DNA of 5,045 nt, from the IMG/VR virus record IMGVR_UViG_2671180524_000020; one strand, 5' to 3'. This document shows positions 4,890-5,045 of the stretch, in pieces. The DNA comes from a virus. Lineage: Duplodnaviria > Heunggongvirae > Uroviricota > Caudoviricetes. Each line of letters starts with the position of its first letter. Within the stretch, counting starts at the first letter, position 1. The translations under genes and the position numbers were made by a program. The notes under the pieces are model-generated. The model made no database searches. It was not told the origin of the DNA and worked only from the letters and a program-made list of their open reading frames with translations.

Positions 4890-4915
4890 AAAATAAAAAA
4901 ACCGCCGCAGCGGTT
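4890..4915 (-). terminator. Rho-independent terminator oriented for minus-strand transcription
   Basis: Minus strand reads AACCGC-TGCG-GCGGTT (6-bp stem, 4-nt loop; plus 4900..4915) followed at once by TTTTTTTATTT (plus 4890..4899). It sits 25 nt after the upstream gene's TAA (4943..4941) and directly before the capsid-gene RBS. Confidence 0.5.
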
Positions 4916-4940
4916 CATGATGGTTACAGTGTGAACAGGG

Positions 4941-5045
4941 TTATATGAAAAAAACCGCATATTCTTTCTTTTTCGGTTCCGGGTTAAGGGACATCAGGGA
5001 GACCGCATTGAACAGCGCCATCAGCGGGTCAATTTTTCCCCGTCC
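4941..5045 (-). CDS. 3' end of an upstream minus-strand gene (5' end outside window), function unknown
   Basis: The only frame open from the window edge to TAA at 4943..4941 gives ...GRGKIDPLMALFNAVSLMSLNPEPKKKEYAVFFI*. Codon choice (CTG, CCG, GCG, TCC) matches the other minus-strand genes, and the terminator lies 25 nt downstream. Only 35 codons are visible. Confidence 0.4.
   Translation of the reverse strand, partial: GRGKIDPLMALFNAVSLMSLNPEPKKKEYAVFFI

Follow-up and report, generated by a model that had tools for sequence, protein, structure and literature searches.

The window analysed here, the whole stretch of 5,045 nucleotides, carries all the genes in its open reading frame list on the minus strand and, read in that sense, opens with the last 34 codons of terL, the gene for the large terminase subunit. 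The identity of terL follows from the RefSeq annotation of an identical sequence, the prophage copy in strain TR01 (locus L001 below), and from the Pfam families TerL_ATPase and TerL_nuclease on the full protein. Between its stop codon and the next gene lie an unstructured spacer, a GC-rich hairpin, a U-tract and a Shine-Dalgarno (SD) sequence (Table 1). The seven-U run proper is at 4901..4895, where the first three U are paired in the stem, and is followed by A4894 and by UUUU at 4893..4890; the U-rich stretch as a whole (UUUUUUUAUUUU) thus starts within the 3' arm of the stem and has its last base at 4890. A CUGAU spacer separates AGGAGG from the start codon GUG (4877..4875), and only 11 nt lie between the U-tract and that codon. 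The gene so preceded encodes a fusion of a prohead serine protease with an HK97-type major capsid domain. Its start is ATG in relatives, at the same codon as the GTG here. An AUG-UGA start-stop pair that overlaps this GTG (AGGAGGCUGAUGUGA) is peculiar to the E. coli group; the relatives, with ATG in that position, lack it.

Table 1. Coordinates of the features discussed in the text; positions are those of the window unless another sequence is named.
Feature	Position	Strand	Remarks
terL 3' end	4941..5045	-	Stop TAA at 4943..4941; C-terminus ...KKKEYAVFFI
Unstructured spacer, terL stop to hairpin	4917..4940	-	24 nt
Terminator hairpin	4899..4916	-	GAACCGC-UGCG-GCGGUUU; 7 bp (4 G-C), 4-nt loop
U-tract	4890..4898	-	UUUUAUUUU, 3' of the stem
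SD of the capsid gene	4883..4888	-	AGGAGG; the single C4889 separates it from the U-tract
AUG-UGA start-stop pair	4874-4879	-	E. coli group
Prohead protease/major capsid fusion gene	2940..4877	-	645 aa; GTG start at 4877; Pfam Peptidase_S78 and Phage_capsid
SD-like AAGGAGG	2933..2927	-
Second GC hairpin, just after the capsid stop	2904..2925	-	-18.9 kcal/mol, z -4.0; no U-tract
73-aa ORF (MAKIRYLQ...)	2895 (ATG)	-
353-aa repeat-protein ORF	306-1367	-	After the portal gene
Pre-capsid site in Sakai	NC_002695.2 2,231,102..2,231,087	-
HnrS (EcOnc10) in Sp12	NC_002695.2 2,234,370-2,234,435	+	Between Rz and the HNH gene
Major-tail cassette	L001:18398-18412
Tape-measure cassette	L001:19857-19874

Elsewhere in the window, the repeat-protein ORF contains a 162-bp tandem repeat (775-1151; 2.3 copies, 91% match), ranges from about 900 to 1566 nt in length among relatives and gives a weak, sub-threshold match to CBM_5_12. 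RefSeq merges it in L001 into a 'frameshifted portal', and the annotation of phage BP-4795 lists the two genes separately; the portal and repeat-protein ORFs simply overlap by ATGA (1364-1367). A run of 50 N (201-250) and six isolated Ns (542-579) interrupt translation of the start of the head-tail connector gene and of the repeat-protein ORF.

The initial annotation had placed a hairpin and U-tract terminator directly before the ribosome-binding site of the capsid gene, and this is borne out, on the minus strand, which it had left unstated. The distance from the upstream stop, given there as 25 nt, comes to 24 or 25 nt according to whether the outer G.U pair is counted, and the folding-energy check that it suggested finds a stable structure: the hairpin alone folds at -10.7 kcal/mol, against a mean of -3.6 for dinucleotide shuffles (z -3.8), with none of 200 shuffles as stable. 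The significance is confined to this local hairpin: folded as a whole, the 81 nt that reach from the stop of terL to the start of the capsid gene do not stand out from chance (z -1.6). A permissive terminator scan of the window showed no enrichment (4 matches found, 4.2 expected), and the pre-capsid site has the most stem pairs (7) among its four matches. Under strict scan criteria (a hairpin of -7.5 kcal/mol or lower and six or more T among eight bases), the pre-capsid site was the only match on the gene-sense strand of the window, versus 0.11 per shuffled sequence. The site thus presents the features by which an intrinsic terminator is recognised, namely a GC-rich stem, an adjoining U-tract and a co-oriented placement past a stop codon. 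On the plus strand no U-tract lies 3' of the hairpin; the element therefore has a single orientation, that of the late genes.

The sequence belongs to a widespread family of prophages. Of 5426 complete E. coli genomes, 1251, mostly O157:H7, carry the 346 bases around the site with at least 90% identity, in as many as seven copies each, and the window as a whole matches Stx1a-, Stx2a- and Stx2c-converting long-tailed phages at 90-98%. A segment of the window is 100% identical to prophage Sp12 of strain Sakai; Sp15 of the same strain has a lambda-type head module, different from that of Sp12. The search for an upstream Q-like antiterminator, which the initial annotation had proposed, was successful in Sp12 and in BP-4795, in each case on the strand of the site. 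In Sp12, Q is ECs_2267 (Pfam PF06323, E 7e-92), 10 kb upstream, and the order along that strand is Q, three tRNAs, lysis genes, HNH nuclease gene, terS, terL, terminator and capsid gene. Four sense-strand terminator-like hairpins lie between Q and the pre-capsid site, the first of them a predicted tR'-like hairpin and U-tract 66 nt after the Q stop, making the pre-capsid hairpin the fifth after Q. In BP-4795, an inducible Stx1 phage, the same terminator is 11 kb downstream of a Q of family PF06530 (E 5e-52), with stx1AB and lysis genes between them and with a predicted hairpin and U-tract at 45 and at 250 nt after Q. According to the annotation tables of BP-4795 and Sp12, the gene array, which starts at Q and takes in the lysis, packaging, head and tail genes, is essentially all on one strand; the only genes on the opposite strand are small, one lying between Rz and the HNH gene in both elements and another directly behind Q in BP-4795. 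The 10-kb flanks retrieved for relatives reach Q in two loci only. A relative from outside E. coli (L088) has Q plus a predicted tR'-like hairpin 73 nt after it. In the L001 copy the Q region is deleted, so that the terminator of this prophage cannot be read through in cis. A near-identical pre-capsid terminator and the same head module thus stand behind two unrelated Q families, PF06323 in Sp12 and PF06530 in BP-4795, and this is consistent with readthrough that is independent of the type of Q.

A capsid-protein search of species-representative genomes and IMG/VR yielded 109 loci in which to follow the element. The stem is intact throughout some 50 E. coli copies, which differ from one another only in the outermost pair (A-U to G.U), in the length of the U-run (7 or 6) and in the loop, which is UGCG or UCCG. 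One IMG/VR contig of the E. coli type (L072) has unrelated DNA upstream of the capsid gene, with a capsid match beginning at residue 10, which suggests that an insertion or rearrangement removed the terminator and ribosome-binding site. Every gamma- and betaproteobacterial relative, at roughly 32-77% capsid identity, has the layout of hairpin, U-tract and SD. Enterobacterales relatives (59-78% capsid identity) share the form ACCCGC-NNNN-GCGGGU followed by UUUUUCGUUUC(A/U)GGAGG, and Hydrocarboniphaga (50%), Marinobacter (54%) and Snodgrassella (32% capsid identity) have hairpin versions of their own in the same place. The element is absent from alphaproteobacterial relatives. In five of the six remaining distant relatives (L020, L022-L024 and L030, two of them labelled merely Proteobacteria and Chelativorans) the stop codon clearly leads almost directly into the SD, with no hairpin. 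In the sixth, Parasphingorhabdus (L028), where the capsid start could not be confidently placed, the stretch covered contains no hairpin.

In the relatives the spacer from terL to the hairpin is 18-19 nt long and variable in sequence, and a position 18-24 nt past the stop codon should, judging from footprint sizes, suffice for the hairpin to fold behind a terminating ribosome. The U-tract and SD are better conserved than this spacer: the U-tract is kept as UUUUUUCGUUUC or UUUUUUCAUUUC, the GGAG core of the SD is nearly invariant in the alignment, and the distance from hairpin to start codon is 24 nt in all 29 of 29 relatives. An alignment of 29 distinct sequences has 94.6% of its stem cells paired, compared to 45-56% when the partner is slid by 1-3 columns; this count scores as unpaired one locus (L015) that has its own hairpin in a shifted register. 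Compensatory double changes occur at two of the seven stem pairs, a count also reached in 51 of 500 shuffles, and the support from covariation is modest because the four core stem pairs never vary. The loop, by comparison, has at least 12 variants across relatives.

The same arrangement recurs further along the late operon. We counted as a cassette any hairpin with U-tract at most 60 nt upstream of a gene start, using the 10-kb flanks of 29 Enterobacterales relatives. Every capsid gene (29/29 loci) and every major tail gene (15/15) has a cassette in front of it, as do most tape-measure genes (14/18); cassettes are found less often before chapG, the gene after the major tail gene (5/14), M (3/11) and L (1/6), and never before the HNH, terS, terL, portal, repeat-protein, connector, head closure, gp10-like, tail completion and T genes (0 each). 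Each of the three main junctions (capsid, major tail and tape-measure) shows nine distinct hairpin sequences, and the likeness among cassettes is structural and positional, since each mosaic tail module tends to have hairpin sequences different from those of the others. At the junction of the tail-completion and major tail genes, L001 and BP-4795 have a second cassette, which reads CCCGC-CGCGU-GCGGG, UUUUUUAUUAUC, AGGAGG, and a third precedes the tape-measure gene; in L001 the latter also has a 5' A-tract, and the permissive scan reported it on the opposite strand. Over the whole of BP-4795, 7/8 sense-strand terminator-like hairpins lie in the 10% of the sequence that is intergenic. The initial annotation regarded the pre-capsid terminator as a likely control point for head-gene expression, which overstates its position, as it is the fifth hairpin after Q in Sp12, and the structural region alone has at least three. 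If lambda is taken as the model, the regulated decision would be made at PR'/tR' next to Q (PMC7547250), and the terminators downstream would enforce it.

The directly observed anatomy of the site, its conservation, its recurrence at defined junctions and the upstream Q are, in our judgement, probably explained by an intrinsic terminator that only Q-modified polymerase passes, lying within a late operon under Q antitermination in a lambdoid prophage of the E. coli O157:H7 Sp12/BP-4795 type. Q proteins are processive antiterminators: they allow late-gene expression by letting polymerase bypass the intrinsic terminators that it meets downstream (PMC7547250; bioRxiv 10.1101/2024.11.20.624540). 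We infer that, behind a polymerase lacking Q, the hairpin would form 24 nt past the terL stop and the transcript would be released in the U-tract, before the capsid ribosome-binding site had been transcribed; because the U-tract stops one nucleotide short of the SD, terminated transcripts would lack that site. Such unmodified polymerases could come from leak-through at tR', from moron promoters or from spurious intragenic starts. Polymerase loaded with Q at PR' would be termination-resistant and would read through all the terminators of the late operon, so that the hairpin would cost nothing in lytic growth. The readthrough after antitermination that the initial annotation had offered as one possibility has the support of its context, the same-strand Q genes 10-11 kb upstream in Sp12 and BP-4795, and would be expected from it. 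As cassettes front the genes with the strongest ribosome-binding sites (capsid, major tail and tape-measure), their role would be to impose strict dependence on Q: the selected effect may be that structural genes stay silent in the lysogen unless transcription has been licensed at PR'. Protection of highly expressed genes is an incomplete rationale for such insulation, because the low-copy tape-measure gene also has a cassette. The absence of the element from alphaproteobacterial relatives and the loss of the Q region in L001 also weigh against the reading as a whole.

A different view is that the hairpin acts mainly after transcription, blocking 3'-to-5' exonucleases and/or shielding a 5' end after RNase E cleavage, with the effect that capsid mRNA outlasts its neighbours. 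This is compatible with terminator function and, as the main role, we consider it rather unlikely. The capsid cistron is bracketed by hairpins on its 5' and 3' sides, as a strong conserved hairpin lies right after the capsid stop as well (Table 1); it is found in all relatives, with differing stem sequences, even in those that lack the upstream hairpin. Annotated hairpins in HK97 likewise flank the capsid and major tail genes on both sides, and in every relative the cassette stands before the genes for the two most abundant virion proteins. Moreover, terminators would be unable to set relative transcription under Q, so that differential expression would have to be post-transcriptional. Against this view, a hairpin placed behind terL would shield the terS-terL mRNA, and not the capsid mRNA, from exonucleases; the low-copy tape-measure gene, and sometimes M, are also preceded by a cassette; and the full U-tract is conserved, although a pure stabiliser needs none. 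The fixed spacing from hairpin to SD and the hairpin after the capsid gene would suit a post-transcriptional role equally well. The two functions might also be combined, with the cassette terminating unlicensed transcription in the lysogen and its hairpins and U-tract setting, in the Q-antiterminated late mRNA, segment stability and/or translation initiation of the major capsid and major tail genes. We regard such dual use as unlikely; if it held, virion protein stoichiometry in HK97- and lambda-like phages would be partly encoded by moonlighting terminators.

The post-capsid hairpin has a further peculiarity of layout. It lies between the SD-like AAGGAGG and the ATG of a conserved 73-aa ORF on the minus strand, and its formation would bring AAGGAGG to a normal distance from that ATG, an arrangement that resembles a 'split' ribosome-binding site. 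Enterobacterales relatives share the layout, as do the E. coli copies, in which the stem sequence is a different one; in more distant relatives only a hairpin after the capsid stop is left.

The element could also be a translation enhancer, in which the U-tract beside AGGAGG recruits S1 and the hairpin insulates the ribosome-binding site from long-range pairing. The invariant distance from hairpin to start, the conservation of the U-tract and SD relative to the spacer, and the identical layout before the major tail gene would all agree with this. We nevertheless find it quite improbable, given that a terminator packed against the next ribosome-binding site is to be expected anyway in a compact phage genome, and that in partition-function models opening or deleting the hairpin shifts the unpaired probability from SD to start by at most 0.03. 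These models used 210-nt contexts from five loci, with one arm complemented or the hairpin deleted, and the absence of a predicted effect on accessibility in all five leads us to reject insulation of the ribosome-binding site by the hairpin.

Two other readings are very unlikely. The first has a terS-terL transcript end at the terminator and the capsid gene transcribed from a promoter in terL or the spacer that has escaped recognition, as the initial annotation had suggested for the upstream gene; the only thing that speaks for it is the seeming paradox that a gene needing high expression should lie behind a terminator, whereas any promoter within terL would have the terminator between itself and the capsid gene and its transcript would be stopped too, only 11 nt are available between the U-tract and the start codon, and scans for sigma-70-like sites returned none in the window (1.9 expected) and none in terL of L001. 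The second, to which we give just as little credence, is that the terminator is the 3' end of an Hfq-binding sRNA derived from the 3' end of terL, like StxS, HnrS or AgvB. A hairpin with a U-tract is the standard Hfq-binding module, and such sRNAs are abundant in the late regions of O157 prophages (PMC4104026, PMC7547250, PMC13502914). On the other side, an Rfam 15 search of the whole window with E values up to 1 gave no match, and none of 64 orphan Hfq-CRAC peaks from Sakai lies near the Sp12 site, a weak negative in that the peaks come from uninduced cells and comprise orphan peaks only. The Sp12 peaks in the EcOnc table (Tree et al. 2014) are EcOnc10 and EcOnc51, both on the strand opposite to the site. 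Identity with HnrS (EcOnc10-12) is ruled out by its different sequence, which we recovered from primer tables. HnrS is antisense to the Sp12 late operon, 3.3 kb upstream of the terminator, and is absent from the otherwise similar L001 prophage.

For annotators, the comparative counts amount to a simple rule: in this widespread head and tail module, the capsid and major tail genes always have a terminator-like cassette in front of them, and ten other late genes never do. We regard this quantitative rule, together with the bracketing of the capsid gene on both sides, as modestly interesting. The internal terminators are short, conserved and easily deleted, and Term-seq and dRNA-seq data exist for Sakai (Term-seq: GEO GSE143631; Sy et al., PMC7547250), so that the insulation and mRNA-stability ideas are directly testable. 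The late operon of Shiga-toxin phages carries stx, which gives limits on uninduced late transcription some medical relevance, with the caveat that the pre-capsid site is downstream of stx.

Among known systems, the EHEC sRNAs StxS (from tR') and HnrS (EcOnc10-12) reside in the same prophages, and their 3' ends, too, are formed by intrinsic terminators with U-tracts (PMC7547250, PMC13502914). They differ from the element described here in having their own promoters and mapped ends and in binding Hfq, whereas neither a listed Hfq peak nor a promoter-like sequence accompanies the present site. The closer parallels are with the late operons of HK97 and lambda; in the literature searched we found no functional tests of the internal late-operon terminators of either phage, including the lambda D-E hairpin.

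HK97 (NC_002167.1) has annotated putative terminators at 3309-3335, 5192-5213, 6692-6719, 7443-7462, 8398-8422, 13799-13824 and 15107-15129. They flank the major tail gene, follow the capsid gene directly, and precede the protease/capsid block and the tape-measure, I and J genes; the one at 5192-5213 is the equivalent of the post-capsid hairpin in our window. In HK97 a sense-strand GC hairpin with U-tract lies 16-21 nt before the starts of the protease/capsid, major tail and tape-measure genes, junctions that are also occupied in the prophages studied here. In our scan of HK97, 4/6 sense-strand matches fell in the 5.6% of the genome that is intergenic, and a fifth overlaps the last portal codons, 19 nt before the protease start. 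The gene order differs, being portal, protease, capsid in HK97 and terL, protease-capsid fusion, portal here, and the hairpin sequences are unrelated, so the likeness is one of position and structure, with the HK97 features themselves being predictions.

That Q-modified polymerase ignores terminators inside the late operons of lambdoid phages is textbook biology. For lambda, Ray and Pearson, in the 1970s, and then Sampson, Hendrix and colleagues (1988) reportedly traced the differences in late-gene expression mainly to translation initiation and not to transcription. Four of seven sense-strand matches in lambda fell in the intergenic 3.7%, and a hairpin with U-tract lies 19 nt after the stop of D and 18 nt before the start of capsid gene E. 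The prophages studied here share with the lambda Q/PR'/tR' system an upstream Q on the same strand, predicted hairpins 45-73 nt after Q and a long late array. The lambda tR' is promoter-proximal and makes the regulatory decision, whereas the element described here is 10-11 kb downstream and one of several. The pre-capsid terminator is thus an unannotated instance of a known design, one that is annotated in HK97 and implicit in the biology of lambda.
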